Below, in pieces: positions 20,017 through 64,000 of a stretch of DNA of 64,000 bases; the stretch's first letter is position 1; every line of letters starts with the position of its first letter. Source of the stretch: an uncultured Acidobacteriota bacterium. Lineage in GTDB: Bacteria; Acidobacteriota; Thermoanaerobaculia; Multivoradales; UBA5704. The DNA is taken from the NCBI GenBank assembly GCA_963700145.1, contig OY969474.1:1472001-1536000 (forward strand), given 5' to 3'. A program made the position numbers and the translations under genes. The notes under the pieces are model-generated. The model saw only the letters and a program-made list of their open reading frames with translations, had not been told where the DNA came from and did no database searches.

Positions 20017-20275
20017 TCCTCAGCGGCTGATACGACGTCCTCAGCCGCTGATACGACATCCTCAACGCCTGATACGACATCCTCGGCGGCTAATACGTTG
20101 TCCTCAGCGGCTAATACGACCTCCTCAGAGCTTCCGGATACATCCTCAGCGGCTGATACAACATCCTCAGGGGCTGATACGACATCCTCAGGGCCAGATA
20201 CCGCATCTCCAGGCCCTGGGGAGACGTCCGGAGGCCCCCCGACGACCTCCTGAGAGGACGCGCCGAGGTCCTCCG
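20017..20275. repeat. 21-bp tandem array, consensus TCCTCAGCGGCTGATACGACA, ~12 units decaying rightwards
   Basis: TCC/TCT anchor every 21 nt from 20017 to 20269 with no indel. Confidence 0.9.
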
Positions 20276-20806
20276 TCGCCGGGCGCCTCGCCCGCCGACC
20301 GGATCGTCACCGGGCCGTTGACTCCCGCGCCTGGTGAGGGGCGGGACCGCGCGCTAGGGCGATTGAGGGGTTGGGCCTCGGCCGTTCGTTGTTCATCTTG
20401 CAGGGCAACGTAAGGAGCTTCGCATGAGCCATTTCCTCGGGGTCGCCGTCCACGACGGCCGCACTCTCAACCAGACCACAGGCCTTGACCTGACACCTCG
20501 CGTCGGCTCGCTCGGCGGCCCCATAGGTGGTGGTGATCCTGATGCCGAAATCGGACCAACCCTGAACGACGCCTTAGTCGGACGCTTCAGCCCGCAGGAG
20601 CGCCGGTCAGGCGGATCACGGTCCGCTTCGGCGGGCCATGACTAACTGACCGGTGATCACATGGGCCTCGAGCCACTCGCTCCGGCGCTGCATTCTGCTC
20701 CCCTCGCTCCAGATGAAGATCGGAAGCGCAGATTCAGGCAGGCATTCGGCCGTATAGCGCGGCTTGAGCCTGCGAAAAGCTCTACATAAACCTAAGGAGA
20801 CGCATT

Positions 20807-22444
20807 ATGATCAACCAGAACTGGGTATTTGGCAAGAACGCCGGATTGGATTTCTCGACAAGCACCCCGACGCCATCATCGAACAACGTCATTAATACGT
20901 CCGAGGGCTGTGCATCCATCTCGGATGCGAACGGAAACCTCCTTCTGTACACTGATGGACAGAAGGTATGGGATGGCACGAACACCCAAAGGGCAACGGG
21001 CCTGTCGGGAAATCCATCCTCCACACAATCAGCGATCATCGTTCCCGACCCTGCTAACGCCGCTCGATACTACGTTTTTACAGCCGACGGGGCATCCGGC
21101 GGCAACAACCACGTCGATGGCCGACGGATTGACACGAGCACATGGGCTGTCACACAGTTGTCATCGATCATGGCGATGCCCTCGACCACTGGCTTCTCGC
21201 CGACAGAGAAACTCACAGCCATCCAGCACGCGAACTGCAAGGACTTCTGGGTCATAACAATCATTCAAGCAGGGCAGACTCAGCTTGCAAATGGACTCGG
21301 CACGCTTCGCGTGTTCCTAATCAATTCGACCGGAGTTCAGCATGTTGGGGATACACCGATGAACGTCAATGTTCATGATCTGGGGTATCTGAAGGGAAGC
21401 CCAGACGGCAAGCGAGTCGCTATCGCAAACTGGTCCAACCATAACGTGCTCGTCTATCCATTCGACAATTCGACCGGTACCATCGACCTGTCGAATCTGA
21501 TCACCATTCCGGTCCCCGCTATCCCTATCCAGAACCACCCGCGGGTCACATATGGTGTCGAGTTTTCGCTGAACGGCGATATCCTCTATTACACAGTGCT
21601 GGGTGCTTCAGTAGGTACCATTCCTCAGGCAAACGGGTATGTTTTTCAGCATAATCTTCTAGTCTCTTCCGCCTCGGTTCAGGTAGGAATGCACCCGAAC
21701 GCCGGGGGGCCGCCGCCGCGATACGCCCTGGGAGCACTCCAGTTGGGGATTAACGATCTCATTTATATAGCGCAGGACGGCGAGAATGCCTTGGGCGTCA
21801 TCGCGAATCCAACCGTGCTGGGAGCTGGCTGCGGCCTGACATTTAGCGCGCTTCCTCTTGCCCCCAATACCACATGTTACCTTGGTCTTCCCAACCTAAT
21901 TCCTAATCCGTGCGGATGCGCCTGCGAGAAGGGTAATTGCGACGATGCGGTGGACAAGGCAAACCAAATCCTCAACACAACGGCCGACACGAAGTTCTTC
22001 ACGATCATTGCTAACGGCCAAGCGGTACCGCCAAATTGCGGCCTGGCATTCCAGCAGACGAACTTCGAACCGCTCTTCTCGCTACACTGGGGAGACGGAC
22101 CAACCGACCAGTTCGAATCGCATGACACTGAGATCATTTATATCAGAGTCCAAAACCTCTTCAGGAACCTGATATACCGAGGAGTAAAAATCTTTAATAT
22201 CAGGGTCACCCCTAATCAGGTGCTGCCGAGCGGCGAGGCTGCCTTGCAGTTGATTCCTGCGGAGATCGTCTGCTTTGATGAGATCGAACCTTGCTCGTAT
22301 GTCTCCAGAGACTTTGCATTTTTCATTCAGAATGCAGTCGTACAAGGCTACCAGATTACATTCGACTATTGCATCGAAGAGACGGCCATCGTGTCACCCA
22401 ACGATGGCAGCGCAGCATTTAACGTTCAGGTAGTTGCGAGCTGA
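20807..22444 (+). CDS. Low-GC beta-propeller-like protein (NWxFGxNAGLDF N-terminus) with an unknown C-terminal domain
   Basis: AAGGAG RBS; EGCASISDANGNLLLYTDG, SSTQSAIIVP, SPDGK, YGVEFS and GLPN motifs recall Bacteroidota PKD/gliding-associated propellers; no signal peptide. Confidence 0.8.
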   Translation: MINQNWVFGKNAGLDFSTSTPTPSSNNVINTSEGCASISDANGNLLLYTDGQKVWDGTNTQRATGLSGNPSSTQSAIIVPDPANAARYYVFTADGASGGNNHVDGRRIDTSTWAVTQLSSIMAMPSTTGFSPTEKLTAIQHANCKDFWVITIIQAGQTQLANGLGTLRVFLINSTGVQHVGDTPMNVNVHDLGYLKGSPDGKRVAIANWSNHNVLVYPFDNSTGTIDLSNLITIPVPAIPIQNHPRVTYGVEFSLNGDILYYTVLGASVGTIPQANGYVFQHNLLVSSASVQVGMHPNAGGPPPRYALGALQLGINDLIYIAQDGENALGVIANPTVLGAGCGLTFSALPLAPNTTCYLGLPNLIPNPCGCACEKGNCDDAVDKANQILNTTADTKFFTIIANGQAVPPNCGLAFQQTNFEPLFSLHWGDGPTDQFESHDTEIIYIRVQNLFRNLIYRGVKIFNIRVTPNQVLPSGEAALQLIPAEIVCFDEIEPCSYVSRDFAFFIQNAVVQGYQITFDYCIEETAIVSPNDGSAAFNVQVVAS

Positions 22445-22529
22445 TCGATCAACTTTACGTCTTGAGGTTCTAACCAAGGCCATTGTGGAAGCAACCAGCG
22501 CCCAATGCTGACCGCTCGATGAGGTCGGC

Positions 22530-22592
22530 GCCCAACCCGCCGATCGAGCGGACGGCAAACGGCGGCGCCGCTCATCGGCAGGGGCGTTATTC
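22530..22592 (+). mobile_element. Integron attC site
   Basis: R'' GCCCAAC; arms GCCGAT-C-GAGCGG-A-CG / CG-CCGCTC-ATCGGC with two extrahelical bases (G and T on the bottom strand); R' GTTATTC; 63 bp. Confidence 0.75.
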
Positions 22593-22619
22593 GGCCGAGA
22601 ACAGGGGGGGAAGGTGATC

Positions 22620-23073
22620 GTGAACCGGGAGACAATGATTCTGCTGTTCTCGGTGGGCCTGCTGTTGGTGGGTTGCGCCTCCAACTCTGGAGTCGGGCCA
22701 GTCGGGCCTGACACATTCATGGCCTCTAGGCAGGCTTTTTTCAGGACTTGGTAGCTAAAGGCCGACGCCCCTTGAGGAGGCGAGCCGATACTTGTGCAGG
22801 CCAGAAGAAGGAGCTACAGGTGGTAAGCACTAGTGAGTCGAAGCTACCATACGTGTTTGGCAACTTTCCTCCAGCCGAGGTCAGTTCATGTGCCTCGATA
22901 CGAAAGACCCTGAGCTCGCTCGGCCGAAGCTGCAACCACAGCCGGAGGTGGTCATCCAGACCGCCCCGCAATTGGAGCTCGTCAGCAACAAGCAACAGCC
23001 GAGCTTGTTCCCGTCTCAATCGAATCCGAGCCAGCCGGCGCAGACGCCTACCTCGATGGCGCTTCGTCGGTAG
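22620..23073 (+). pseudogene. Frameshifted lipoprotein gene cassette
   Basis: LLLVGC-ASNSGVGPVGPDTFMASRQA, continuing in other frames as FSGLGS..ADA.EEASRY, CAGQKKELQVVST..PYVFGNFPPAEV and FMCLDTKDPELARPKL. Confidence 0.65.
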
Positions 23074-23167
23074 CACTCCTCTTCTGAAGACGTCGTCCGT
23101 GACCTAACCTCCCGGTCGTTAGCAAACTGCCCATGCGTGCCGCCTGTGTGTCAAAAAAACCGCCTAG

Positions 23168-24437
23168 CAGGCCGCTGAGAAACGGCCTTCAACGGCGGGT
23201 GCGAGGCTGACAGCGATCTGGGAGCGGGCGATGTCGCGTGCGCGGGTGGAAGGGGAGGGCAACAGGCGCCTTGTGGGCGCGTTTGAGCGCCGCTGGTTTT
23301 GCTGGGCAGGACCTTTTTGGGCTATGCCGGCACGAGCAGGCGACTTAATCGGAGCAGGTTGTACGCTGCGGCGGCGAGGCGGGCGGCCAGCTGCGTCCTC
23401 GCCACGCCTCGGACCCTGGTCCGGTGCAGCCCTGCGCAGGTCTTGAGCCAGCCGAAGATCGTCTCGATTCGCCGCCGTACGACCTGACTGATCCGGTAGC
23501 CGGGACGGCGCGTTGTTCGCCGGTCGATTGCCGAGCGCCTGCGCCGGTGGGCATTCTGGGTGACGTGGGGGGTGACGCCGAGCTCTCGGCAGGCAGCCAC
23601 GAAGCCCTTGGTGTCGTAGCTCTTATCGGCGCCCACCGTCTTGCGCCGCGAGCCTTCGAGCCGCGCGAGCAGACCCAGAGCTTCGCGACGCTCGGCGAAC
23701 CCATCGGCCTGGGCCACCACGAAGTCCACCAACAATCCGTTGCGGTTCTCCATCAGAGCGTGGCCGGAAAACGAGAGCTTCGCCTCGTGCCCATCCCCCT
23801 TGCGGGCCAGGCGCGCTTCCGGGTCGGTCGTCGAGGCGTGCGTCTCGTTGCTCCGCTTCGTCCCCGTGAAATCGCTCCAGCCGTTGGCGTCTCCGCCCGG
23901 TGGCCCGTCCTTGGGCCGGAAGCTCTTCATCGACGCCCAGGCCTCGATCAGCGTCCCATCCACCGAGAAGTGCTCGCTCGACAGCAGCCGCTGCACGCTC
24001 GCCTCAGCCACGATCGCCGCCAAAAACCGCTCGGCCACCTCGTGCCGGATCAGCCGCTCCCGGTTGCGTGAAAACGTGCTCGCGTCAAACGACGGCTCGT
24101 CGAGCTCCAGATCCAAAAACCAGCGAAACAGCAGGTTGTACTCGAGCTGCTCGCAAAACTGCCGGTCGCTCCGCACCGAAAACAGCGCGATCAGCAGCTG
24201 CGCCTTGAGCAGCCGCTCCGGCGGCACCGACGGCCGCCCCGTCTCGGCGTACATCACCGCAAACACCTCACTCAACTGCCCGAGAGCCCGGTCGGCCAGC
24301 CCCTTGATCCGCCGGATCGGATGCGCCGCCGGAATCCGCTCCTCCAACGACCCCACCATCAACAACGTCCTCTGCTCGCGCGCTTTCCCTCGCATGGCCT
24401 GCAAGGGTAGCGCGAACCGGGGTTTTTCAGCAGCCTG
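23168..24437 (-). mobile_element. Complete IS5-family (IS5/IS1182-like) insertion sequence, ~1.27 kb
   Basis: TIRs CAGGCCGCTGAGAAAC / CAGGCTGCTGAAAAAC (14/16); CTAG duplicated at 23164-23167 and 24438-24441. Confidence 0.92.
23322..24395 (-). CDS. IS5-family DDE transposase
   Basis: GRPSVPPERLLKA..RSDRQ..EQLEYNLLFRWF, SVDGTLIEAWAS, GADKSYD and RRRIETIFGW motifs. Confidence 0.95.
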   Translation of the reverse strand: MRGKAREQRTLLMVGSLEERIPAAHPIRRIKGLADRALGQLSEVFAVMYAETGRPSVPPERLLKAQLLIALFSVRSDRQFCEQLEYNLLFRWFLDLELDEPSFDASTFSRNRERLIRHEVAERFLAAIVAEASVQRLLSSEHFSVDGTLIEAWASMKSFRPKDGPPGGDANGWSDFTGTKRSNETHASTTDPEARLARKGDGHEAKLSFSGHALMENRNGLLVDFVVAQADGFAERREALGLLARLEGSRRKTVGADKSYDTKGFVAACRELGVTPHVTQNAHRRRRSAIDRRTTRRPGYRISQVVRRRIETIFGWLKTCAGLHRTRVRGVARTQLAARLAAAAYNLLRLSRLLVPA

Positions 24438-24454
24438 CTAGGCATCCCCTTTCC

Positions 24455-25801
24455 CTAACTCCACCCGATGGCGTGGGCGATGAGGAGGAGCCCCAGGCCG
24501 GCGACCAGCCAGGCGAGCTGAAGGGGCCAGATGAAGCGGGCCCAGCGGGTCCAGGGGATCCCGGCCAAGGCTAGCGCCGCCATGAAGTAGCCCTGGGTCG
24601 GGGTCAGGATGTTCGAGAAGCCGTCGCCGAGCTGGTAGGCGAGGACGCTGGTCTGCCGGGTTACGCCGACCAGGTCGCCGAGGGGCACCAGGATCGGCAA
24701 CGATAGAGCCGCCTGGCCGCTGCCCGACGGGACGACGTAGCTGAGCACGACCTGGACGCCGTACATGCCGGCGAGGGTCGCCGCCGACGGCAGCGCCCGC
24801 ACGGTCTCGACCAGGGCGTGGAGGATGGTGTCGGTGACCTGGGCGCCGTCGAAGATGACCAGGACGCCGCGTGCCAGGCCGACGACGAGGGCGCCGGGGA
24901 CGATGGCCGCCGCTCCCTCGAGGAAACGGTCGGCCGTGCCGTTGGCGCCGAGGCCGCCGGCCAGGCCGGCGGCGATCGCCAGCCCCACGAACAAGCCGGA
25001 GAGCTCGAGCAGGCCCCAGCTCCAGCGCATCGCGCCGACGACGAGGATTGCGATCGTCGCCCCGAGGAGCGCCAGCACTACCCGCTGCCGTAAGCTCGCG
25101 CAGGCCGGCGCCGCGCTCACCTCGTCGCCCGGCCCGGCGGCCTCCGGAACGCGGATCCGCCGCGCGTACCACTCGACGTACACGATCGCCAGCGCCGTGA
25201 GCACCGTCCAGACGATCAGCCGGTAGCCCATCCCCGAGAAGAGCGGCAGGCCGGCGATCGCCTGCCCGACGCCGACGGTGAACGGGTTGATGAACGCACC
25301 CGAGAACCCGGCGCCGGCGCCGACCAGCGCGATCGCCGCGCCGGTCGTCTCGTCGTAGCCCAGCCGGCGCGCCAAAAGGACCAGCGGCGGGATGAAGGGC
25401 AGGGTCTCCTCGGCCAGGCCGATCGTGCCGCCGCCGAGCGCGAAGACGAAGAGCAGCAGCGCCAGCGCCAGCGGGCCGCGGCCGCCGCTCGCCCGCACCA
25501 GCGCCGCGAGCGCCGCCTCGATTGCGCCGGTCGCCTGGAGGACACCGAAGGCGCCGCCAATCAGAAAAATGTAGACGACGATCGGCGCTGTGGCGATGAG
25601 CCCGCGCGGGTAGGCGAGCAGGACCTCGGACCAGCCGGCGGGACGCGACGGGAGCGGATGGTAGGAGCCGGGATCGACGACCTCGCGGCCGTCGCGGACG
25701 ACGCGGTCGTAGGCGCCGGCCGGGATGAAATGCGTGGCGGCGGCGGCGAAGGCGATGAGGACGAACAGCAGGACGAAGGTGTGGGGGAAGCGGGCGCTCA
25801 C
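24455..25801 (-). CDS. YfcC/DcuC-family (short-chain acid or arginine-ornithine type) transporter
   Basis: PHTFVLLF, IPAGAYDR, NPFTVGVGQAIAGLPLFSG and PSGSGQA motifs; many TM helices. Confidence 0.88.
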   Translation of the reverse strand: MSARFPHTFVLLFVLIAFAAAATHFIPAGAYDRVVRDGREVVDPGSYHPLPSRPAGWSEVLLAYPRGLIATAPIVVYIFLIGGAFGVLQATGAIEAALAALVRASGGRGPLALALLLFVFALGGGTIGLAEETLPFIPPLVLLARRLGYDETTGAAIALVGAGAGFSGAFINPFTVGVGQAIAGLPLFSGMGYRLIVWTVLTALAIVYVEWYARRIRVPEAAGPGDEVSAAPACASLRQRVVLALLGATIAILVVGAMRWSWGLLELSGLFVGLAIAAGLAGGLGANGTADRFLEGAAAIVPGALVVGLARGVLVIFDGAQVTDTILHALVETVRALPSAATLAGMYGVQVVLSYVVPSGSGQAALSLPILVPLGDLVGVTRQTSVLAYQLGDGFSNILTPTQGYFMAALALAGIPWTRWARFIWPLQLAWLVAGLGLLLIAHAIGWS

Positions 25802-25810
25802 CCCCGGCTC

Positions 25811-26494
25811 TCAGGGCTTGGCGGCCGCGAGCTCGACCGCGCCCTTCGGGCACTGCAGCTTGAAGACGAGCCCCGGCGCCGCCGCCTTCTCGACGACGAG
25901 CGGGAGCCCGAGGCGCTCGCCAAGGCGCTTCAAGGGCTCGGGCTCGGCGTCGTGGAGCTTCAGGGCGTCGAGCGTGCAGCCGCCGGGGGAGGTCGTCGAG
26001 GGGTGCGCCGCGCCCGCCTTCCATTCGATGAAGAACGGCAGCGCGGGGTTCGTGCTCTTGAGCGCCACGATCTTCCATTCGAGCACCTGGCCGTCGGGCT
26101 TGACGCGCGAGCCCGGAAACGGCCCGAGGGCCTTGTGGCCGAGCGCCTGGAGCTCCGGGACGATCGCCGCGGCGTCCGCGACGCCGACCGCCCAGGTGAG
26201 CGGCGTCAACTGCTCGAGGCCGGCGAGCTGGGCGAAGCTGGCATCGAGCTTCTCGCCCGGGACCGGCGCGATGATCTCGAGATAGGTCCCGCCCCCGAGC
26301 GACGCCAGCGCATTCTGCGTGCCGCCACTCGGGTGCTTGCCGCCGAAGACGGGCTCGACGCCGGTCAGTGCCCGGAACTGCGCCACGCCGGCGTCCAGGT
26401 TGGCGACTCCGAGCACGAGGTGATCGATCGTCGCGGCGCCGGCAGGCGCGGCGACGAGGGCGGTGGCGACGGCGGCGAGGGCGGCGGCGCGCAT
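25811..26494 (-). CDS. VOC/glyoxalase-like protein with a signal peptide
   Basis: IDHLVLGV, GGKHP..GTQNAL, YLEIIA and LPFFIEW motifs. Confidence 0.85.
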   Translation of the reverse strand: MRAAALAAVATALVAAPAGAATIDHLVLGVANLDAGVAQFRALTGVEPVFGGKHPSGGTQNALASLGGGTYLEIIAPVPGEKLDASFAQLAGLEQLTPLTWAVGVADAAAIVPELQALGHKALGPFPGSRVKPDGQVLEWKIVALKSTNPALPFFIEWKAGAAHPSTTSPGGCTLDALKLHDAEPEPLKRLGERLGLPLVVEKAAAPGLVFKLQCPKGAVELAAAKP

Positions 26495-26572
26495 GACTTT
26501 CCTCCTGCCTCCTGAGAAGATGAAGTCGCGTCACGCTACACCACTCAGCCAGCACACTGAAAGGCGGGGCCC

Positions 26573-27310
26573 ATGGAACAGTACGACGCGATCGCCGGCG
26601 ATTATCAGGAGATCGCGGCCGCCGTGCCGATGCGGGAGCCCGAGTGGTACTCGCTCCGCCTCCGGCTCGGCGACCTCGCCGGGCTCTCCGTCCTCGACCT
26701 CGCCTGCGGCGACGGGATGGGCAGCCGCCTCCTCAAGCGCTGGGGAGCCGCCCGAGTGGTGGCCGTCGACATCTCGCCGGAGATGATCCGGCTCGCTCAG
26801 CAGGAAGAAGAGGCGCGACCTTTGGGCATCGAGTACCGCGTCGCGGACGCCGCGGCGCTGGGGAAGATCGGCGAGTTCGACCGCGTCACCGCCTCGTACT
26901 TCTTGCACTACGCCCAGGACCGGGAGCAGCTCCTCCGCATGGTGCGGACCGTCTACGACAACCTCGAGCCGGGCCAGCTCTTCGTCGGGAGCAACGCCAA
27001 TCCGAACCGGCCGCCGCAACCGGTCATCGACCAGCGGCAATACGGCCTCAGGTACCAGCTCGTGGACGAGCCCCTCCGCGAGGGCTCGCGACTCCGCGCC
27101 ACGCTCTTCCTCGGCGAGAAGACGGTGGAGTTCGACTTCTACTGGCTGCCCTGGACGGCCTACGAGGAGGCGTTCCGGACCGTCGGGTTCCGCTCCTGGA
27201 GGCTCGAGCCCTACCTGATCACTCCGGGCTCCGAACGCAAGTACGGCGAGGGCTTCTGGGACGAGTACGTCGCCACGCCGTCGGTCGTCCATCTCATCTG
27301 TCAGAAGTAG
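26573..27310 (+). CDS. Class I SAM-dependent methyltransferase (ToxA-like)
   Basis: VLDLACGDG, VDISPEMI and FD.VTA.YFLHYA motifs. Confidence 0.88.
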   Translation: MEQYDAIAGDYQEIAAAVPMREPEWYSLRLRLGDLAGLSVLDLACGDGMGSRLLKRWGAARVVAVDISPEMIRLAQQEEEARPLGIEYRVADAAALGKIGEFDRVTASYFLHYAQDREQLLRMVRTVYDNLEPGQLFVGSNANPNRPPQPVIDQRQYGLRYQLVDEPLREGSRLRATLFLGEKTVEFDFYWLPWTAYEEAFRTVGFRSWRLEPYLITPGSERKYGEGFWDEYVATPSVVHLICQK

Positions 27311-27454
27311 CGGTCGCCGCCCCTGAAACTGCTGCGCTCCCTGCGCGTGCAGGACGTCCCGCGTCGCGGGCCGCGGTCCCCACTTTGCCGGCCTGACGCA
27401 CCTCAGATTACGGAGGCGACAACGGTGTCGCTACGAACCTCGCGAGGTGCCCCC

Positions 27455-27814
27455 ATGACCATGAAACAGGTCCCGCTCCTCTTTGTCGTTCTGCTAGGCA
27501 TGGTCGCCCTATCAACCGCCGCGGCAGTCGCTTCGGACTGCGATACAACCAGGTGCGGTGCGGGCGTCGACGACGATGGAAAGTGCAAGACGCACGCGGA
27601 CTTCAGCTGCGATGAGGTCTGCAACGACAACGGGTGCGATGGGGGCGACTCCGTGGGTGGAGAGTTCAACTGCGGCGGCGTCGGTCCCTGGAAGATGTGC
27701 CAGTGCAACGACTGTGACCTTCTCATGGAAATGGTTTCCTTCGAGCGTACTTGGGGCTTTTCCTCCCTGGCGTCATCCTGCCCTGGCGATGCCTTGATGA
27801 ACGCTGCTAGGTGA
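27455..27814 (+). CDS. Small secreted cysteine-rich protein
   Basis: GAGG RBS; signal peptide ending AVA; 11 Cys including CxxxC and CxC. Confidence 0.65.
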   Translation: MTMKQVPLLFVVLLGMVALSTAAAVASDCDTTRCGAGVDDDGKCKTHADFSCDEVCNDNGCDGGDSVGGEFNCGGVGPWKMCQCNDCDLLMEMVSFERTWGFSSLASSCPGDALMNAAR

Positions 27815-29036
27815 CGGAGGGATCGCCGCAGAAGGCGAGGGCGCTCAGGGCGTAGATGCGGGCGGCCTCGGCGACCTCGGCCAAGGGCACCGACTCGTCG
27901 GGGCCGTGGGCGAGCGCGAGGTCGCCGGGACCGAGGACGACGGTGGGGATGCCGGCCTCGGCGGCCAGCAGGGCGCCGTCGGTCCAGGCGGGGAAGGCCA
28001 CCGGCCCCTCGCGGCGGCCGCGCACGGCGGCCGCCGCGCCGGCGATCGCGGCGGCGAGCGGATGCTCGGCGGGCGTGAGCAACGGGCCGTGCGCCATGGT
28101 CGCCATCCCGCCGGGCTGGCGCCGGACGTTCCAGCCGAGCCCGGGGAATCCCGCGGCGACACGGCCGCACAGCTCGGCAAGCTCCTCGATCGCCGCGTCC
28201 GCGGTCTCGCCGGGGACGAGCCGCCGGTCGGCGGCGAGGACGCAGCGCGCCGCGACGGTCGACGGCTGGTCGCCGCCCCGGATCGTCCCGACGTTGAGGG
28301 TCGGCGCGCCGAGCAGCGGGTAGGCGCGGGCGGCGAGGCGAGGCGCGAGGTCGCTCTCGATCAGCCCGAGCAGGCGGCCGGCGGCGGCGATCGCGCTCAC
28401 TCCGCGCTGCGGCGTGCCGCCGTGCGCCGCCCGCCCGACCAGCTCGATCTCCAGCCATTCGAGCCCCTTGTGGCCGAGGGCGAGGCGATTCTCCGTGGGC
28501 TCGCCGACGATCGCGCCGTCGGCGCGCGGGCCGCTCCGCACCAGCCGCTCGGCGCCCAGGCTCTCCATCTCCTCGTCGACGACGGCGGCCAGGGTCACCG
28601 ACCCGGCGGCGAGCGCGCCGCTCCCATCGAGCGCCACGATCGCCGCCGCCATCGCCGCCAGCGCCCCCTTCATGTCGACCGCGCCGCGGCCGTAGAGGCG
28701 CCCGTCGCGCACCGCGGCGGAGAAGCCGACGCCGGGATCGCCGGCGTTGAGCGGCACCGTGTCGGTGTGAGCGCAGAGCAGGAGGGACGGGCCGGGACGC
28801 GCCGCGGCGATCGTCGCGACGAGGTTCGGGCGGCCGGGTGCGGCCTCGTCGAGCGTCGCCGCGATGCCGTGGGCGGCCAGGAACGCGGCGAGCCGGCGCA
28901 CCACCGCTTCCTCCTGCCGCGGCACACCGGGGTGGCTCGGCGTCGCCACCAGGTCGGCCAGCAGCTCCCGCCATCCGGAGCGGTCGATCCGCTCGCCCAG
29001 GTCCTGCAAGAGCTCGCGCACGGGCGGCGCGAGCAT
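27807..29036 (-). CDS. M20 metallopeptidase (ArgE/DapE-like)
   Basis: AHTDTVP, GRGAVDMKG, DEE, GEPT, HKG and AHGPDE motifs. Confidence 0.92.
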   Translation of the reverse strand: MLAPPVRELLQDLGERIDRSGWRELLADLVATPSHPGVPRQEEAVVRRLAAFLAAHGIAATLDEAAPGRPNLVATIAAARPGPSLLLCAHTDTVPLNAGDPGVGFSAAVRDGRLYGRGAVDMKGALAAMAAAIVALDGSGALAAGSVTLAAVVDEEMESLGAERLVRSGPRADGAIVGEPTENRLALGHKGLEWLEIELVGRAAHGGTPQRGVSAIAAAGRLLGLIESDLAPRLAARAYPLLGAPTLNVGTIRGGDQPSTVAARCVLAADRRLVPGETADAAIEELAELCGRVAAGFPGLGWNVRRQPGGMATMAHGPLLTPAEHPLAAAIAGAAAAVRGRREGPVAFPAWTDGALLAAEAGIPTVVLGPGDLALAHGPDESVPLAEVAEAARIYALSALAFCGDPSVT

Positions 29037-29069
29037 AGCCCGCGAAGGCTGTATCCTTGTAGCGCTCCG

Positions 29070-29897
29070 ATGACGCCTAGATTCCTCTGCCTGCTCGCGC
29101 TGGCGCTCGGCGCCGTGCTTCCCGCCGCCGCGCAACCGCCGCCGGCGGAGAAATCCGCCGAACCCGCCCGCGCCGAGGTGCTGGTCCTCGGCACCTACCA
29201 CATGGCCAACCCGGGACGCGACATCTTCAACATGCAGGCCGACGACGTGCTCGCGCCCAAGCGCCAGGCCGAGATCGCAGAGGTCGTCGCGGCCCTCAAG
29301 CGGTTCAACCCCACGAAGGTCGCGGTAGAAGCCGACGTCGGCGACGACCGCATCCCCAAGCGCTACGCCGACTACCTGGCCGGCACCTACGAGCTGACGC
29401 GCAACGAGACCGAGCAGATCGGCTTCCGGCTCGCCAAGGAGCTCGGCCACAAGACCGTGTACCCGGTGGACGTCGAGGGCGACTTCCCGTTCCAGCGCCT
29501 CGCCAACTTCGCCAAGGCGAGCGGCCGCTCGCCGGAGCTCGACGCGATGATGGGCGAGGTCGGCGGCATCGTCGAGGCGCAGGGCGCGTATCTCGCCTCC
29601 CACACCATCCTCGAGACGCTGCTCTACATGAACGCCGACGACAAGGTCGCCGCGGACGTGGGCTTCTACTACCGGCTGGCGCACTTCGGCGAGCCCGGCG
29701 ATTGGGCCGGCGCCGACCTGGTCTCCGAGTGGTTCCGGCGCAACATGCGCATCTACACCAACGTCGTGCAGCTCGCCGACTCTCCGAACGAGCGCCTGCT
29801 GGTCGTCTTCGGAGCGGGGCACCTCGGCTGGCTGCAACAGGACTTCGCCAGCAACCCCAACCTCCGCCTGCGCAAGCTCGCCGAGTTCGCCAGGTAA
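29070..29897 (+). CDS. Secreted DUF5694-like protein
   Basis: Signal peptide; VLGTYHMANP, FNPTKVAVE, NE..QIGFRLA, W..RN.RIY and FGAGH motifs. Confidence 0.8.
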   Translation: MTPRFLCLLALALGAVLPAAAQPPPAEKSAEPARAEVLVLGTYHMANPGRDIFNMQADDVLAPKRQAEIAEVVAALKRFNPTKVAVEADVGDDRIPKRYADYLAGTYELTRNETEQIGFRLAKELGHKTVYPVDVEGDFPFQRLANFAKASGRSPELDAMMGEVGGIVEAQGAYLASHTILETLLYMNADDKVAADVGFYYRLAHFGEPGDWAGADLVSEWFRRNMRIYTNVVQLADSPNERLLVVFGAGHLGWLQQDFASNPNLRLRKLAEFAR

Positions 29898-29900
29898 GGC

Positions 29901-30187
29901 CGCTTTTCGAGAGGGAAGCTTCCCTACCGGAAAGGCAAGCTTCGCTTTTCAAGAGGGAAGCTTCGCCTTTGAAGAGGGAAGCTTCGCCATCCAAAAGGGA
30001 AGCCTCGCTTTTCAAGAGGGAAGCTTCGCCATTCAAAGGAGAAGCTTAGCTTTTCAAAAGGGAGGCTTCCCTACCCGAAGGGGAAGCTTCGCTTTTCAAA
30101 GGTGAAGCTTCCCTTTCCGAAGGCGAAGCTTCGCTTTTCAAAAGGGAAGCTTCCCTTTCGGGGAGGCAAGCCTCCCCTTGCGAGGAA
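29901..30187. repeat. 21-bp self-complementary tandem array, consensus GAAGCTTCGCTTTTCAAAAGG, 13 units
   Basis: Units start at 29915+21n up to 30167 with no indels; lies between two convergent stop codons. Confidence 0.93.
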
Positions 30188-30215
30188 TGTCCTCGCCAGG
30201 GGACGAGGACTGTTA

Positions 30216-32912
30216 CTATTCGTAGCGCAGCGCCTGGGTCGGCGCGATCCGGGAGGCTCTGCGCGCGGGCACGTAGGCCGCCAGCATGGTCACGAGCACC
30301 ATCGACGGCACGACGACGAGATACGCCACGACGTCGACCCCGCCGGCGTCGAAGAGCATGGAGTTCATGAGCTTCTCGAGGGCGAAGCCCATCGCCAGGC
30401 CCATCGCGGTTCCCAACCCCACGAGCACGAGGCTCTTGCTCATCACCAGGCGCAGCACGGCGAGCGGTCCCGCTCCGATCGCCATGCGGATGCCGATCTC
30501 GCGCGTCCGGCGGGTGACGTTGTAGGACACCAGCCCGTACAGGCCGGCGATCGCCAGCAGGAGGCCCACGGCGCCCATCGTGCTGACCAGCCGGACCGCG
30601 ACCGCCGGGCCTTCCACGGCGTGGTACCGGTACAGGTTCTCGTAGCTCCTCGCCTCGATCAGCGGCATGTTCGGATCGAGCGCGCGGACGATCTCCTTCA
30701 CCGGCTCGACCCAGCGCAGCGGATCGCCGCTCGTGCGCACCAGCAGGACCATGCGCGCCTTCGGGTCCTGCGCCAGCGGCAGGTAGACGTTGTCCGTCGG
30801 CTTCTCGCTGGTATCGCGGTACTTGATGGTCTGCGCGACGCCGACGATCTCGATCGGCGTGCCGTCGCGGCGGCCGAGCCGGAGGCGCTTGCCCACCGCC
30901 TCGGTGCCCGGCCAATAGCGCTTCGCGAAGTGCTCGTTGACGATCGCAACACGCGGCGAGTCCGCGGTGTCCGAAGCCAGGAAGCCGCGGCCGCTCAGGA
31001 TCCGCACCCCCAAGGTCTCGAAGTATCCCTCGTCGACGATGTCCATCATCGAGGTGAAGCTGTCGTGATCGGGCGGCATCTGGAAGCCCTCGGGCACGAA
31101 GGAGAGGGCGGCGAAGGCGCCCAGCCCGAGCGGCGGGTTCTGCGCCAGGGCCGCGGCGCGGACCCCGGGCGCCTGCCGGACGCGGTCGGACAGCAGCTCG
31201 TAGAACCGCTCCGTCCGCGCCGCGTCGTACTGCACCAGGCGCGGATCGAACCTCGCCAGCAGCAGGTGGTCGTGCGCGAACCCGACCCCCTCGCCGAGGC
31301 CCTGCCGGAAACCCCTCGCCATCAGGAACGAGGCCGTCAACAGCGTCAGGGACAGGGCGACCTGCGCCACCACCAGGACGTTGCGGGCCCAGAGGCGTTG
31401 GCTCCCGGGCACCTCGACGTCGGCCGTCTTGAGCCCGTTCGCGAGGTCCGGGCGCGTCGACTGCAGCGCCGGCGCCAGCCCGCAGACGAACGCGCTCACG
31501 ACGGACAGCGCGACGCTCAGCAGCAGCACGCGCGTGTCCATCCGGAAGGGGACCGTCACCGGCAGCTCGGCCGGGATGCTGAAGTCCTGCAGCAGCCCGA
31601 TGACGCCGTAGCCGAGGGCGATCCCGCCCAGGCCGCCCAGGAAGGACAGGATCAGGCTTTCGGTCAGGAGCAGCCGGACCACCCGGGAGCGCCCGGCGCC
31701 CAGCGCCAGCCGCACGGCGATCTCGCGGGTGCGCGTGGCGGCCCGGCTCAACAGCAGCCCCGCCACGTTGGTGCACGCCACCAGCAGCACCGTCAGCGCG
31801 AGGACGGTGAAGATCACGCCGAACCGCCAGTTGATGTCGTCGCCCCGCGTCCGCATCTCGAACTGGGTGCGCACCTCGGCGCCGCGGCCGTGGTTGAGCG
31901 CCGGGTGCTCGCGCTCGAAATTGCGCGCGACGACGGCAAGCTCGGCCCGCGCCTCCTCGAGGCTCGCGCCCTCCTGCAGGCGCGCCTTGACGCTCAGCTC
32001 GCGGTCGTCCCGGTCCTCGAAGAAGCGCTTCTGCGGGTCGGTCGAGAAGACGGGCGCCATCGCCAGCGGCACGTAGAGATCGGGGCGGGCGAAGATCAGC
32101 ATCCCCCGGAACTCCTCCGGCGCGACGCCGATCACGGTGAACTCCGTACCGTTCAAGCGGATCGTCCGGCCGACGACGGCGGGGTCGCCCCCGAACTCGT
32201 ACTTCCAGAAGTCCCACCCGAGCACCGCCACCGCGTCGCGGCCGGGCACCTCGTCCTCGTCCTTGCGGAAGCCGCGCCCCAACGGCGGCTCGACGCCGAG
32301 CACGGAGAAGTAGTTGCCGGAGACCAGCATGCCGATCTTGACCCGCGGCGTGGCTCCCGGCTCGGCGGCGAAGCCGACGGCCTGGGCCGAAGTGTTGGCG
32401 ATCACGCCTTCGTAGCTTCTCGTCTGGTCCCGGATGTCCAGGTACTCGCGGTACGAGAAGTGGTCGTAGCGGTTGTCGCGCGACGTGCTCGCCAGCCAGA
32501 CGACGTCCTCCGGGTTCGGCACCGGATGCGGCCGGAAGATCAGCGCGTCGAGCATGCTGAAAGGCGTCGCGGTCATCCCGATCCCCACGGCGAGCGTGAC
32601 CACCACGAAGGCGGCCAGCCCGGGGTTGCGCAGCAGGCTCCGGACGGCGTAGCGCGTATCGGCGAAGAAATCAGTCAACCAGTTGACGCGTCGCATGTCC
32701 CGCATCTCCTCTTTCCGTTGTTCCAGCCCGCCCATCGCGCGCATGGCCCGGCGGCGCGCCTCGTCCGGGGGCAGCCCTTGGGCGATGCCTTCCTCGATCT
32801 TGTGCTCGAGGTGGAACTGCAGCTCCTCGTCGAGCTCCTGCTCCACCCGGCGGCGGCGGAAGATGGACCGCAGCCGCAACGGCGCCGTGAACCACCAGTG
32901 TTCGATCCGCAT
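30216..32912 (-). CDS. Acidobacterial duplicated orphan ABC permease (ADOP, MacB/FtsX x2)
   Basis: ELDEELQFHLE prefix; D.RYAVRSL; REIAVRLALGAGR and REIGIRMAIGA; PARRASRI.P..ALRYE. Confidence 0.93.
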   Translation of the reverse strand: MRIEHWWFTAPLRLRSIFRRRRVEQELDEELQFHLEHKIEEGIAQGLPPDEARRRAMRAMGGLEQRKEEMRDMRRVNWLTDFFADTRYAVRSLLRNPGLAAFVVVTLAVGIGMTATPFSMLDALIFRPHPVPNPEDVVWLASTSRDNRYDHFSYREYLDIRDQTRSYEGVIANTSAQAVGFAAEPGATPRVKIGMLVSGNYFSVLGVEPPLGRGFRKDEDEVPGRDAVAVLGWDFWKYEFGGDPAVVGRTIRLNGTEFTVIGVAPEEFRGMLIFARPDLYVPLAMAPVFSTDPQKRFFEDRDDRELSVKARLQEGASLEEARAELAVVARNFEREHPALNHGRGAEVRTQFEMRTRGDDINWRFGVIFTVLALTVLLVACTNVAGLLLSRAATRTREIAVRLALGAGRSRVVRLLLTESLILSFLGGLGGIALGYGVIGLLQDFSIPAELPVTVPFRMDTRVLLLSVALSVVSAFVCGLAPALQSTRPDLANGLKTADVEVPGSQRLWARNVLVVAQVALSLTLLTASFLMARGFRQGLGEGVGFAHDHLLLARFDPRLVQYDAARTERFYELLSDRVRQAPGVRAAALAQNPPLGLGAFAALSFVPEGFQMPPDHDSFTSMMDIVDEGYFETLGVRILSGRGFLASDTADSPRVAIVNEHFAKRYWPGTEAVGKRLRLGRRDGTPIEIVGVAQTIKYRDTSEKPTDNVYLPLAQDPKARMVLLVRTSGDPLRWVEPVKEIVRALDPNMPLIEARSYENLYRYHAVEGPAVAVRLVSTMGAVGLLLAIAGLYGLVSYNVTRRTREIGIRMAIGAGPLAVLRLVMSKSLVLVGLGTAMGLAMGFALEKLMNSMLFDAGGVDVVAYLVVVPSMVLVTMLAAYVPARRASRIAPTQALRYE

Positions 32913-32923
32913 GGCTTTTCTCG

Positions 32924-33613
32924 CTACTCGTTGATCGGCGTTCGTATTCCCTTGACCAGCAGCCAGATGCCCAGACCGACTTCGTAGATCCCTATCGGCG
33001 CCATGTAGGTCAGCCCCATGGCACCCAGACTCGGGAACACCATGATGGCCAGCGTGACGCCCGACAGCACCAACGACGCGAAGATCCCCCAAGCGGCCAG
33101 CGCCCGCGGGATGTAGCGCGACCTGAGCCAGAGGTAGCTGAAGAGGGCCGATCCCAGGCCGAGAAAGACGAAGGCGATCCTGAGCCCCTGCCCCTGCACG
33201 CCGATGAAGAGGCGCGCCAGCGCCTGCAACTGCTCCGGGTCGACCGCCCGCAAGTACTCGGCGCCGCCCAGGAGCCGCAAGGCCACGAAGCCGTTCAAGA
33301 CGGCGACCGCGCCGACGGCGTTCTCGGCCAGCCGCCAGAACGCCGCCAGCAAGGCCAGATGCCGGTTGACCGGCGCCAGCACGACGTAGAGCGCCACGAT
33401 CAGCGCGATGACGGTCACCGCCGTCATCAGGTCGCTTGCCAGACCGATGCGGAAGAGGCGGTCGGACGCCGCCAGGTTCGCGGCGGTCTGCGCGGCGTCG
33501 CGGGTCACGACCTGGCCTTTCGCCCAGAACCCGAAGACCCCGGTCGCCATCTGCAGCAGGTAGAGGAAGCCGGCCGCCTTGGCCGCGGTGCGTTGTGCCG
33601 GTTCGAGCGCCAT
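32924..33613 (-). CDS. DUF4386-like membrane protein
   Basis: AAGFLYLL..TAANL...LFRIG; YL.LRSRYIPR; E..LG.WLLVKG. Confidence 0.8.
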   Translation of the reverse strand: MALEPAQRTAAKAAGFLYLLQMATGVFGFWAKGQVVTRDAAQTAANLAASDRLFRIGLASDLMTAVTVIALIVALYVVLAPVNRHLALLAAFWRLAENAVGAVAVLNGFVALRLLGGAEYLRAVDPEQLQALARLFIGVQGQGLRIAFVFLGLGSALFSYLWLRSRYIPRALAAWGIFASLVLSGVTLAIMVFPSLGAMGLTYMAPIGIYEVGLGIWLLVKGIRTPINE

Positions 33614-33615
33614 CC

Positions 33616-34002: not shown

Positions 34003-34049
34003 GGCGTCGGAGACTGGGAGGACCTACGCAGGCTGGAGCGGTAAGGCCT

Positions 34050-35423: not shown

Positions 35424-35471
35424 GAGCCCTCCCTTTCCAGCGCGAATGGAACGAGCTACCCGCAACAGACT

Positions 35472-40347: not shown

Positions 40348-40350
40348 GCG

Positions 40351-41519: not shown

Positions 41520-49852
<8,333 letters not shown>

Positions 49853-49856
<4 letters not shown>

Positions 49857-53677: not shown

Positions 53678-53768
53678 GTGAGGATCCTCCTCGTTTCCAG
53701 AGTGTCCCATGAAGGCTACCGGGAGACGGAGCGCTAGACTCGGGCCCGGAATCCGAAGGAGGCGAGCG

Positions 53769-55328
53769 ATGCGGCAGAGCTGGAAGCGGCGGGCGTGGCG
53801 GTCGGCGGCGGCGGTGGTGATCCTCTCGGCCTTCGCGATGGCGGGCTGCCGGTCGGCGGGACCGGCCAAGCCGGGGGTGGTGGTCGAGCCGGCCCCGGCG
53901 CCCGGCGCGGCGGCGGGCGCCGTCATGCTGCCGCCGCGGGTCGAGCTGGCCCCGTGCGGTCCGGCGCAGCTCGGCCCGCAGCCCGCGCCGGAGATGGCCG
54001 GCGCGCAGTGCGGCGTCTACGAGGTCTTCGAGAACCAGCGCACGCGCGCCGGCCGCACCATCCCGCTGCAGGTCCTGGTGCTGCCCGCGACCGGCCCCGA
54101 GCGGCAGCCGGACCCTCTCCTGGTGCTGCTCGGCGGCCCCGGCCAGGGCGCGGTCGCCGCGGCGCCGATCTTCGCCAAGGCGTTCGCGCCGCTGCGGCAG
54201 AAGCGCGACCTGGTCTTCATCGACCAGCGCGGCACCGGCGGCTCGCGCCCGCTACACTGCCCGCTGCCCGGCAGCGACGACGACCCGCAGGCCTTCCTCG
54301 GCGACTTCCTGCCGGTCGAGGCCGTGCGCGCCTGCCTCGCCGCGCTCGACGCCGACCCGCGCCTCTACACCACGACGCACGCGGTCGAGGACCTCGAGGA
54401 GGTGCGCTCGGCCCTCCAGTACCCGCGCCTCAACGTCTTCGGCCACTCCTACGGCTCGCGCACGGCGCTGGTCTGGATGCGCACCTTCCCGGCGAGCGTG
54501 CGCGCCGCGGTCCTCTACGGCGCGGCGCCCACCGACATGCACCCCCCCCTCAACCACGCGCCCGACGCCCAACGCGCGCTCGACCGCCTGCTGGCGGAGT
54601 GCGCCGCCGACGCCGCCTGCGGCGCCGCCTACCCCGACCTGCCGGGCAAGCTCCAAGAGGTGCTGGCGCGGCTGGCGGCGGCGCCGGCGGAAGTCGAGAT
54701 CGAGGACCCGAAGACCAAGCGGCCGGTGCGGCTGCGGTTGTCCCGTGACCTCTATGCCGAGGTGCTGCGCTGGCGCCTCTACGACGAGCGGGCGGCGAGC
54801 CTGCCGTCGTTCATCGCCGCCGCCCACGCCGGCGACTTCGCGCCGGTGGCCCGCGCGGCGCTCGGGCTGCGGCGGGCGGGCGCCACCGGCGCGCTCCTGG
54901 CGGTCGGGACGTTCCTCTCGACGACCTGCGCCGAGGACGTGCCCGAGATCGAGAAGGCGGAGGCCGACCGGCTGGCGAAGGGGACCTTCCTCGGCAGCTA
55001 CCGCGTGGATCAGCAGCGCCGCGCCTGCGAGGTCTGGCCGCGCAACGACCTGCCGCGCGGCTACGAGGCCCCGGTCACCGCGCCGGTCCCGACCCTCGTC
55101 GTCTCCGGCGAGCGCGACCCGGTGACCCCGCCGCGCTGGGGCGAGAAGGTCACGAGCCACCTGCCACGTGCCAGCCACCTCGTCCTCCCCCACGGCGCCC
55201 ACGGCGTCCCCGGCCCCTGCCTGGCCGAAGTCTTCGCCGAATTCCTCGACCGCGCCGACCCGCAAGGGCTCGACACGAGCTGTGTCGAGAAGATCGAGCG
55301 GCCGGCGTTCGTGCTGCCTGGGGGGTAA
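53769..55328 (+). CDS. TAP-like alpha/beta hydrolase (aminopeptidase) lipoprotein
   Basis: GGPGQ, DQRGTG, GHSYG nucleophile, DPVTP and H.AH motifs; lipobox AMAGC; AAGGAGG RBS. Confidence 0.88.
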   Translation: MRQSWKRRAWRSAAAVVILSAFAMAGCRSAGPAKPGVVVEPAPAPGAAAGAVMLPPRVELAPCGPAQLGPQPAPEMAGAQCGVYEVFENQRTRAGRTIPLQVLVLPATGPERQPDPLLVLLGGPGQGAVAAAPIFAKAFAPLRQKRDLVFIDQRGTGGSRPLHCPLPGSDDDPQAFLGDFLPVEAVRACLAALDADPRLYTTTHAVEDLEEVRSALQYPRLNVFGHSYGSRTALVWMRTFPASVRAAVLYGAAPTDMHPPLNHAPDAQRALDRLLAECAADAACGAAYPDLPGKLQEVLARLAAAPAEVEIEDPKTKRPVRLRLSRDLYAEVLRWRLYDERAASLPSFIAAAHAGDFAPVARAALGLRRAGATGALLAVGTFLSTTCAEDVPEIEKAEADRLAKGTFLGSYRVDQQRRACEVWPRNDLPRGYEAPVTAPVPTLVVSGERDPVTPPRWGEKVTSHLPRASHLVLPHGAHGVPGPCLAEVFAEFLDRADPQGLDTSCVEKIERPAFVLPGG

Positions 55329-55331
55329 AGC

Positions 55332-55439
55332 TCAGCCGCTGGTCGTGCCGCGCGCTTTCGCCACGTCGGCGAGGGCGGCCAGGAACACGTCGGGATTGGG
55401 ATCTTCCAACGCCGCGGTCAGGTACTCCGCAATCGTCTC
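55332..55439 (-). pseudogene. Fragment of an HI1420-family addiction-module antidote gene
   Basis: ETIAEYLTAALEDPNPDVFLAALADVAKARG, then an early stop; HTH and N-terminus missing. Confidence 0.7.
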
Positions 55440-55452
55440 CACCGCGGCCGCC

Positions 55453-55683
55453 GACCCACTCGGTTCCGCTGCGGACCCACTCGGTTCGGCCGGTGGACCC
55501 AGTCGGTTCCGTCGCGGACCCACTCAGTTCGCCGCTGGACCCACTCGGTTCGGCCGATGACCCACCCGGTTCGCCGCCGGACCCACTCGGTTCAGCCGCC
55601 GATCCAGCCGGTTCGGCCGCTGCTCCAGTCGGTTCGGCCGCCGACCCACTTGGTTCGGCCGCCGACCCACCCATTCGGCCGCC
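55453..55683. repeat. 21-bp tandem array, consensus GACCCACTCGGTTCGGCCGCC, 11 units
   Basis: GACCCA..GGTTC recurs every 21 nt (one 22-nt and one 20-nt unit). Confidence 0.92.

Positions 55684-56770: not shown

Positions 56771-64000
<7,230 letters not shown>

Follow-up and report, generated by a model that had tools for sequence, protein, structure and literature searches.

A genome-wide class of tandem arrays with a 21-bp period, linked to two small unannotated genes, in an uncultured Acidobacteriota bacterium

Three arrays and their surroundings

The DNA analyzed here, referred to as the window, is a stretch of 64,000 nucleotides (genome bases 1472001-1536000) from an uncultured Acidobacteriota bacterium, whose genome (the source genome, G000) is a single contig of 5,455,767 bp with 71.5% G+C. 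It contains three intergenic arrays of head-to-tail repeats with a period of 21 bp, which belong to a class of arrays found throughout the genome and linked to two small unannotated genes, named A and B in this work. Positions are those of the window unless the genome is mentioned. In a search with Tandem Repeats Finder (TRF) the three arrays obtained the highest scores among the 148 rows of the window, the next best row scoring 108. All three were found with period 21: array 1 at 20016-20191 (8.4 copies, score 199) together with an overlapping row at 20140-20213, array 2 at 29901-30158 (12.3 copies, score 242) and array 3 at 55445-55682 (11.3 copies, score 253). Stacking of the sequence in 21-mers agreed with these rows and revealed decayed in-phase units, which extend array 1 to about position 20289 and array 2 to about 30187.

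Array 1 (20017-20289) is composed of about 13 units of 21 bp, nine well-kept ones followed by four decayed ones in phase, with the consensus TCCTCAGCGGCTGATACGACA and the dyad TCAGC-G-GCTGA. It probably reads on the minus strand, judged from the remnant of an A-gene junction which adjoins it. Array 2 (29901-30187, no strand assigned) comprises 13-14 units of 21 bp with the consensus CGCTTTTCAAGAGGGAAGCTT; almost every base of the unit takes part in its self-complementarity, and dyads lie at GAAGCTTC and CTTTTCAAAAG. Array 3 (55446-55683, no strand assigned) comprises 11 units of 20-22 bp with the consensus GGACCCACTCGGTTCGGCCGC, and a strong dyad is absent from it (stem of 3). Measured from anchor to anchor, all 12 steps in array 2 are 21 bp long. 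In array 1, 11 steps are in register, one of them spanning two units, and the last step, of two units, lacks 7 bases. Of the nine steps in array 3, one is +1.

The original prediction, which was made from the letters of the window, had described three arrays of one period and of unrelated sequence, and both statements hold. At the best rotation and strand, the consensus units agree with each other in 9, 10 and 10 of 21 positions, as many as shuffled pairs do most often, and are thus at chance level. The near-invariant anchor that had been assigned to each array is less well founded: for arrays 1, 2 and 3 unequal conservation of the columns gave p = 0.21, 0.04 and 0.81, in tests on somewhat wider intervals than those of the prediction. 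The location between genes stands by crude gene calls and by Pfam matches on the flanking genes. Rfam gave no match at gathering score in the whole window.

Array 1 lies between remnants of genes on its left and a stretch of 55-61% G+C on its right, which carries unannotated open reading frames (ORFs) and an insertion sequence (IS) element. The left flank (19902-20000, minus strand) is a remnant of the junction between array and gene A, including the array end, the 5' leader and the A start; its identity to the junctions at genome 2032893-2032988 and 4827761-4827856 amounts to 82-83% over 96 nt, and it accompanies array-1-type arrays in the related genomes G001, G003 and G004. Further to the left follows a duplicate of a part of dcuC (19770-19866, minus strand), a direct repeat of 97 bp which is 91% identical to the stretch 24625-24722 in the 3' portion of the gene for the DcuC carrier (24455-25801, minus strand). 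Between the repeat copies lie 4.85 kb with array 1, two unannotated genes of low G+C and the IS element (23162-24443). The latter consists of a DDE transposase gene with a DUF772 domain (23322-24404, minus strand) between terminal inverted repeats of 22 nt at 23162 and 24443, which are 91% complementary. Metagenome contigs coincide exactly with this stretch, at a depth about tenfold that of the flanks, which is what a multi-copy element should give. Among the contigs from four DNA runs on positions 19000-31000, one identical contig of 860 bp, which probably derives from the source sample, spans array 1. Genome G004 retains array 1 at the syntenic site with both copies of the 97-bp repeat, and the low-GC genes are absent there. 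To the left of these features, at 17964-18067, lies a stretch of about 75-100 bp which is present in many copies (85-95% identical) in G001, G002 and G004 and has no match to tRNAs or other families of Rfam.

Two convergent genes, both assigned by Pfam, enclose array 2, which occupies the space from the stop codon of a DUF5694 gene (29055-29897, plus strand) to that of a MacB/FtsX permease gene (30216-33092, minus strand). In G004 the DUF5694 gene, which is lipoprotein-like, and array 2 are replaced by 12 bp, a block of 1.18 kb (29037-30216) being absent, and one metagenome contig shows a similar skip from 29021 to 30125. The sequence family of array 2 was found at other sites, in this genus only.

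Array 3 has the gene of an S33-type alpha/beta hydrolase (53709-55328) on one side and an unannotated gene (55753-56361) on the other. In the source genome, a fragment of an addiction-module antidote (HigA-like) gene (55332-55445, minus strand; PF21716, profile positions 14-47 of 90) separates the array from the hydrolase stop codon; this fragment is missing from the same site in G004, where the array starts about 20 bp past the stop codon. The number of units at this site is 11 in the source genome, 13 in G004 and zero in G003. The last unit is common to the source genome and G004 and the inner units differ, G004 having a GATCCAC subfamily. G003 carries about 80 bp of unique sequence with a hairpin instead of the array. 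The statement that two of the arrays abut foreign or decayed DNA is thus borne out for arrays 1 and 3, and the comparison of filled and empty sites between strains, which had been proposed, yields an empty counterpart for array 2 (in G004) and for array 3 (in G003). At 1.1 kb to the right of array 3 begins a large nonribosomal peptide synthetase gene (56771-61276 and beyond), in which condensation, adenylation and carrier-type motifs were recognized by eye.

A genome-wide class of arrays

The enrichment of 21-bp repeats is genome-wide by each of three measures. One condition that would have refuted the original prediction, a lack of such enrichment in the genome, thus does not apply. TRF listed 1520 non-overlapping arrays in the genome, of which 405 have period 21, 190 period 18, 152 period 15 and 127 period 24; among the 36 long arrays (at least five copies, period of at least 10), 18 have period 21, five period 20 and two period 42. 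Exact 14-mers recur at an offset of 21 in 134 cases, at 42 in 133 and at 63 in 101, and at other offsets in 18 cases at 18, 18 at 20, 12 at 24 and none at 19 and 22. Self-periodic stretches, defined by scanning 105-nt segments for a self-identity of 62% or more at a given offset, number 118 at offset 21 with a total of 29.2 kb; elsewhere there are 16 at 20, 13 at 18, 10 at 27, eight each at 15 and 24, three at 30 and one each at 19, 22 and 23. The 118 stretches merge into 106 loci. Additional loci have a 42-bp period only (12), a 40-bp period (14) or a 60-bp period (13), and the remaining periods between 30 and 66 bp are represented by at most three loci each outside the 21-bp arrays. One array with 42-bp units was located by the period scan at genome 4650040-4650545. 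Because 12 of the 106 loci have a G+C content of at least 76% and look coding or of low complexity, the class is best put at roughly 90-120 arrays.

Seven of the 36 long arrays are clustered within genome 1445412-1582413, that is, in 137 kb around the window, and with a looser threshold arrays are spread over the whole chromosome with 0-11 per 200 kb. Sequence families are evident, since 248 pairs of arrays share at least 15 of 21 positions, compared with 16 pairs in shuffles. Array 2 matches an A-linked array at genome 1445412 in 19 of 21 positions, and array 3 matches an array linked to A and B at genome 333269 in 15 of 21.

The arrays have a median length of 275 bp (interquartile range 211-329), about 13 units and a mean G+C content of 64% compared with 71.5% for the genome. 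Adjacent copies match at 65-90% in the 18 long period-21 arrays of the TRF list. The steps from anchor to anchor are kept strictly: 709 single-unit steps measure 21 bp, 16 measure 20 and 13 measure 22, and 57 of 930 steps are off register. Compensation of +1 by -1 steps within arrays was not significant (13 of opposite and nine of the same sign). Outside crude gene calls, which are based on G+C at third codon positions (GC3) and cover 81% of the genome, lie 71 of the 106 loci; 23 further loci fall under ORF calls, several of which, when checked, merely run across the array. The GC3 excess of coding sequence was not seen in the codon-position G+C over the arrays. The orientations of the flanking genes are unbiased (32 ++, 32 --, 22 -+ and 20 +-), which ties the arrays neither to gene starts nor to gene ends.

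Most arrays carry a short dyad in their unit. A stem of at least five pairs is present in the consensus of 61 of the 106 loci, compared with 19% of shuffled units, and several consensus units are self-complementary over nearly their whole length, that of array 2 among them. Columns in the dyad arms are better conserved than the remaining columns (0.755 compared with 0.639), which holds for 41 of 51 arrays. The dyad cores vary widely and include GGAAGCTTCC, GGAGATATATCTCC, CGGATGTATCCG, GTACCGCGGTAC, GGTATC..GATACC, TCCTCTGG.CCAGAGGA and others. Unequal conservation of columns is significant (p < 0.01) in 34 of 95 arrays, none of the three in the window being among them.

Two candidate explanations can be set aside on these grounds. 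Cryptic heptad peptides, one of four mechanisms named in the original prediction, are rejected, because class members with 20-bp units exist, the frames contain stops and the GC3 signal is absent; moreover, array 2 lies between two stop codons, and the arrays between genes B and A lie between a stop codon and a ribosome-binding site. A CRISPR array is rejected as well, since the variable blocks are diverged copies of each other which share the dyad of the unit, and all units measure 21 bp.

Genes A and B and their arrays

Clustering of the genes nearest to all arrays brought up small unannotated families which recur. Gene A encodes about 130 amino acids with motifs such as LHEFGLRP and was found by tblastn at 16 loci of the source genome. 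At 12 of them an array of period 21 ends within about 50 bp upstream of the gene; the arrays upstream of the other four have period 42 (self-identity 0.88), period 20/40 (0.82 and 0.70) and a weak period 21 (0.60), so that an array lies directly upstream at all 16 loci. Gene B encodes 71 amino acids ending in LEKVA and is present at nine loci, none of which is more than 333 bp away from an array; where B is full-length (six copies), 9-41 bp separate its stop codon from the array. The resulting B-array-A module, as read from six modules set in register, runs from the B stop codon across about 20-40 bp into 10-13 units and on through about 25-45 bp, with AAGGAG among them, to the A start codon. 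One such module lies at genome 3387240-3388185. In many copies the nucleotide sequence of both junctions (B stop to array, array to A leader) is conserved, and the distances are fixed.

The link is not restricted to intact modules. Profiles of A and B match six-frame translations within 700 bp of 18 of the 106 arrays, compared with no match to B and one to A at 318 random sites. In nucleotide comparisons, 17 arrays border a B gene or the 3' end of one, and 17 border an A gene or the 5' end of one; taken together, these are 26 of the 106 arrays. In the window, array 1 abuts the remnant of the A 5' junction described above, no A or B remnant was found beside arrays 2 and 3, and an intact A gene is beside none of the three. 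For the arrays without a remnant, descent from modules is suggested by their shared form and their sequence families.

The original prediction had proposed a test for co-occurrence of the arrays with a gene family such as reverse transcriptases, and such a family exists in A and B but not among enzymes. No enzyme, integrase or recombinase family recurs beside the arrays in the clustering of neighboring genes. The genome holds three reverse-transcriptase genes, none of which adjoins an array, the nearest array being about 3 kb away. Templated repeat synthesis is therefore without support, and an enzyme for it may act in trans. Recurrent neighbors besides A and B are SymE toxin genes and IS3-family transposase genes, and the arrays seem to sit in spots of gene flux. 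Genes of the SymE family (PF08845, E = 1.7e-12) lie at genome 1630930-1631286 and 3498988-3499422, just upstream of two arrays, and IS3-family transposase genes flank several others.

Protein A is predicted by AlphaFold2 to form a helix from residue 6 to 23, a helix of 60 residues from 28 to 87 and a disordered tail rich in P, T, A and E (predicted local distance difference test, pLDDT, 73). The long helix is arginine-rich and bears the invariant residues R57, R59, E60, R65 and R71, and the model would describe A as a helical hairpin of the coiled-coil type. For protein B an alpha-beta-beta-alpha fold was obtained (pLDDT 71). Neither has a match at E <= 0.001 in a Foldseek search against the PDB or a family in Pfam, PHROGs, NCBIfam or PADLOC. 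Their relatives are hypothetical proteins from Thermoanaerobaculia-type metagenome sequences, with the exception of one B homolog, which one source names pterin-4a-carbinolamine dehydratase (PCD). In the Protein Atlas, A falls into unnamed Acidobacteriota clusters and B has no match above 0.75. In the genome G006 the position of B is occupied by a gene of about 100 codons, which we take, from its motifs and from the features of the family, to encode a full-length pterin-dehydratase-like protein; B is accordingly a truncated protein like PCD, also called DCoH (dimerization cofactor of HNF1). Full-length B is restricted to this genus, and elsewhere only its N-terminal part matches.

The modules are part of a larger repeated unit. 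An element of about 6 kb with unannotated genes (genome 3384130-3390221, positions 1131-7222 of the extracted locus L065) contains a B-array-A module, and copies of it which are 80-92% identical outside the array lie near genome 3889403, 3203857, 3107252 and 2032277. Two of the copies share flanks of 85-92% identity and A genes of 78% identity, and their arrays, which belong to different sequence families, cannot be aligned. By this comparison of sequences, A and the array are the fast-evolving part of the element. An ORF of 440 amino acids in it has weak TPR matches, and one weak match was to the PADLOC candidate family PDC-S09; the other ORFs of L065 that were tried (9 to 14 per library) gave no further family in Pfam, PHROGs, NCBIfam or PADLOC.

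Outside the source genome, the A profile was matched in 19 of 21 other members of the family, with 3-13 matches in each; by genus, these are all four genomes of g9, the single genome of g3 and all 14 of g5, but neither of the two of g10. It was found in none of 129 genomes from eleven other families of the order, and a single A sequence used as query was found in two of 301 genomes across the phylum. In G012 all five A loci have an upstream array. In 18 further genomes, an array upstream reaches a self-identity of 0.60 or more at 17 of 28 A loci, and its period is 20, 21 or 40-43 in every case; only two of 28 downstream controls come up to that level. In small samples of 200 kb from four genomes, about three arrays (period 20, 21 or 42; unstacked) were found in G006 and one array of the class in G400, which both have A, and none in G434, in which A was not found, or in G025, which belongs to another family; this agrees with the link between arrays and A.

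In a maximum-likelihood tree of 47 A proteins the period of the adjoining array is clustered. Period 20 needs five changes compared with 9.2 in shuffled labels and period 21 needs seven compared with 15, and none of 500 shuffles was as low for either period; as kinship inflates tests by label shuffling, the point lies in the restricted set of states and not in the p-value. The label changes several times on the tree, at least three changes being forced by well-supported branches, and only between 20 and 21, which argues for a constraint rather than for pure inheritance. The 38 periodic A loci in the tree have no other basic period. The arrays thus form one genome-wide class, restricted to a clade, with a shared origin and a constrained period, and the original prediction was justified in doubting that independent slippage had led to the common period.

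Phased docking and alternative explanations

Of the four mechanisms proposed for the arrays, phased protein binding fits best, given dyads which belong to the duplex, periods confined to 20 and 21 bp and the position upstream of A. We tentatively propose that a dimeric protein, in all likelihood A, docks on the arrays, whose phasing would present its sites on one face of the helix every two turns; this is the explanation we favor, at less than even confidence. The element, which belongs to one family of Thermoanaerobaculia, is a head-to-tail row of about 10-30 units, each of exactly 20 or 21 bp and thus two helix turns long, most of which carry a short core of two-fold symmetry. In its complete form the row stands directly upstream of A and, in this genus, also directly downstream of B. 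Dimers, most likely of A, would dock on the double-stranded DNA of the row along one helix face, in the manner of plasmid centromere or operator arrays, and pairs of A and array would diversify into separate specificities. With the decay of the genes the arrays would persist as solo arrays, and the three arrays of the window may be such orphaned or decayed copies.

The comparison with plasmids is instructive. Like the centromere and operator arrays of plasmids and the iteron arrays of theta plasmids, whose units measure 20 bp in pSK41 and 17-22 bp in iterons, the arrays described here are built of tandem units of about two turns with constant, helically phased spacing, in our case with periods of 20, 21 and multiples. 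According to a published review, the plasmid repeats (type II parC-ParR of pSK41 and R1, omega of pSM19035, tubC-TubR) lie directly upstream of the operon of their binder, take up one dimer per repeat and serve as operator and centromere (PMC5016525). For related plasmids about ten ParMRC families are described, and ParR binding specificity sets incompatibility (PMC9426499); the many array families of the source genome resemble this diversity. Unlike the plasmid arrays, of which there is one per replicon, more than 100 arrays are present on the chromosome, with 10-30 units and mostly solo; ParM, ParA, TubZ and Rep are unrecognized beside the module, and A has no match to ribbon-helix-helix or winged-helix proteins.

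Several observations weigh against docking by A. The protein matches neither a DNA-binding family nor a solved fold, and its tail is acidic to neutral. Three A paralogs which are 73% identical stand beside arrays from three different sequence families, which fits badly with a simple sequence-specific recognition. An array is not strictly required, because 11 of the 28 A loci in the further genomes are below the threshold, and in G006 a stretch of 145 bp without periodicity separates the pterin-dehydratase-like gene from A at one locus, so that B-type and A genes can exist without an array. At orthologous sites the arrays are dispensable (array 3 in G003, array 2 with its neighboring gene in G004). 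About 75% of the arrays have no A or B remnant, and array 3 and some others have no clear dyad. The better conservation of the dyad arms is to some extent a circular finding, since a palindrome is more readily noticed where the columns are well kept. Finally, no ParA, ParM, TubZ, Rep or other motor or replication family was recognized among the ORFs of the 6-kb element that were tried against the four libraries.

An unlikely but serious alternative is that the arrays are a selfish or neutral satellite. A single ancestral 21-bp array would have spread with the 6-kb element, unequal exchange would keep the unit length, and dyads and period would be historical features of inert DNA. The chain-linked sequence families with their 248 related pairs agree with this, as do the clustering of the period on the A tree, which points to inheritance, the modules within a repeated element and the variation in presence and unit number (0, 11, 13) at orthologous sites. 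Decayed units that keep the phase surround young cores of identical units (eight of 20 bp in G018, four to five of 21 bp in G424), as unequal exchange predicts. A satellite, however, does not account for changes of period restricted to 20 and 21, with no other basic period in 38 loci, or for the persistence of the array before A from genus to genus. Few steps (57 of 930) are off register though units differ at about a quarter of their positions, an indel depletion judged against the ratio generally regarded as typical, and dyad arms are kept across many sequences, which requires matched changes on both arms. The arrays also diverge far more than the neighboring DNA, contrary to what is expected of neutral drift at the mutation rate.

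Bacterial genomes are generally regarded as poor in non-coding satellites. In the accessible text of a survey of prokaryotes, transposed non-coding satellite families are reported only for Leptospira interrogans and Methanocella conradii (Subirana and Messeguer, 2019; PMC6749651). Like those, the arrays are non-coding tandem repeats of one kind at many genomic sites; unlike them, as far as that text goes, they have a fixed period of two turns, dyad cores and a link to a gene family. A term search of the same text gave no mention of Acidobacteria, 21 bp or helical phasing.

A more far-reaching form of the docking model, which we hold to be rather doubtful, would treat A and its array as a self-specifying nucleoprotein unit. 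Coiled-coil dimers would polymerize on dyads two turns apart, perhaps stabilized by the DCoH-like B, as DCoH stabilizes HNF1 dimers. At least ten mutually orthogonal specificities would exist, and the roughly 100 solo arrays would be live docking or titration sites acting in trans, either as a chromosome-wide scaffold or as an addiction or incompatibility network. Taken further, the footprint of the bound protein itself would set the 20/21-bp unit by which the array grows.

It is quite improbable that the array acts as RNA, be it as a row of hairpins in a B-A transcript which sets the stability or translation of A, or as a processed repeat RNA which neutralizes A in the manner of type III toxin-antitoxin systems. 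A tandem array immediately upstream of a small protein gene is the hallmark of the latter and is seen here too; the three known families (toxIN, cptIN, tenpIN) have repeats of 31-62 nt in 1.9-5.6 copies, a terminator hairpin and a ToxN-type endoribonuclease, and are multi-copy on chromosomes (PMC3401426). Furthermore, the arrays of the modules lie between two co-oriented genes without a promoter-like site between them (one module scanned), and the dyad cores could fold into hairpins of 5-9 pairs. Compared with the three families as described there, the arrays differ in their units of 20-21 bp in 10-30 copies, in a protein predicted to be a helical hairpin, which is not of the ToxN, CptN or TenpN type and has no match in Pfam including its toxin families, and in the absence of a terminator-like hairpin between array and A in a consensus scan of one module (L065, 4000-5300). 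The most direct evidence comes from the mismatches in the stems. The dyads of 61 arrays contain 3114 Watson-Crick pairs, 365 mismatches of the G-T type, 377 of the A-C type and 1032 others. In 16 arrays with a usable stem, which were oriented by their flanking genes, G-U-compatible mismatches are equally frequent on the sense (76) and the antisense strand (76), so that the symmetry belongs to the duplex and not to one transcript. Solo arrays have no orientation bias relative to their neighbors, and Rfam has no match in the window. Processed small RNAs, which the original prediction had listed as a mechanism, are therefore without support.

That the arrays are recombination or insertion hot spots of an attachment-like kind, with the link to A, B, SymE and IS elements reflecting targeting instead of a module, is very unlikely. 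In its favor, array 1 borders the 4.85-kb segment between the 97-bp repeats with its IS element, array 2 is missing with its neighboring gene as one block in G004, the antidote fragment beside array 3 occurs in the source genome only, and IS3-family transposase and SymE toxin genes recur beside arrays, but the conserved junctions at fixed distances mark a unit and not repeated independent insertions, no integrase or recombinase family recurs, and the empty site in G003 has neither a clean boundary nor a duplication.

Among the abundant repeats of bacteria, repetitive extragenic palindromic (REP) sequences, bacterial interspersed mosaic elements (BIMEs) and REP doublets forming hairpins (REPINs), which are mobilized by REP-associated tyrosine transposases (RAYTs), are short imperfect palindromes, intergenic and sometimes clustered, and form sequence families within a genome. 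Unlike REP and BIME sequences, which are variably spaced or alternating, the units described here are strictly head-to-tail at a fixed step of 20/21 bp. REP sequences with a RAYT are excluded for the source genome, in which no Y1/RAYT transposase (PF01797) was found by a search that detects it in six of 14 control genomes. In the literature we found no description of such arrays in Acidobacteria or Thermoanaerobaculia. What is new is the census of arrays over the whole genome, their confinement to 20 and 21 bp in the different genera and their association with genes A and B.

About 0.5% of the genome is made up of arrays whose period is held to two helical turns across genera, and these arrays are tied to an uncharacterized gene pair which is multi-copy and diversifies rapidly. 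To our knowledge, the known abundant repeats (REP, CRISPR and miniature inverted-repeat transposable elements) each mark a dedicated protein machinery. Should the arrays be inert, they would represent a rare bacterial satellite DNA with concerted evolution and a conserved unit length. If they are docking sites, they would constitute a new and experimentally approachable system of DNA-protein recognition with many natural orthogonal pairs, and may offer a handle on chromosome organization in the Acidobacteria, a dominant but poorly studied phylum of soil bacteria.

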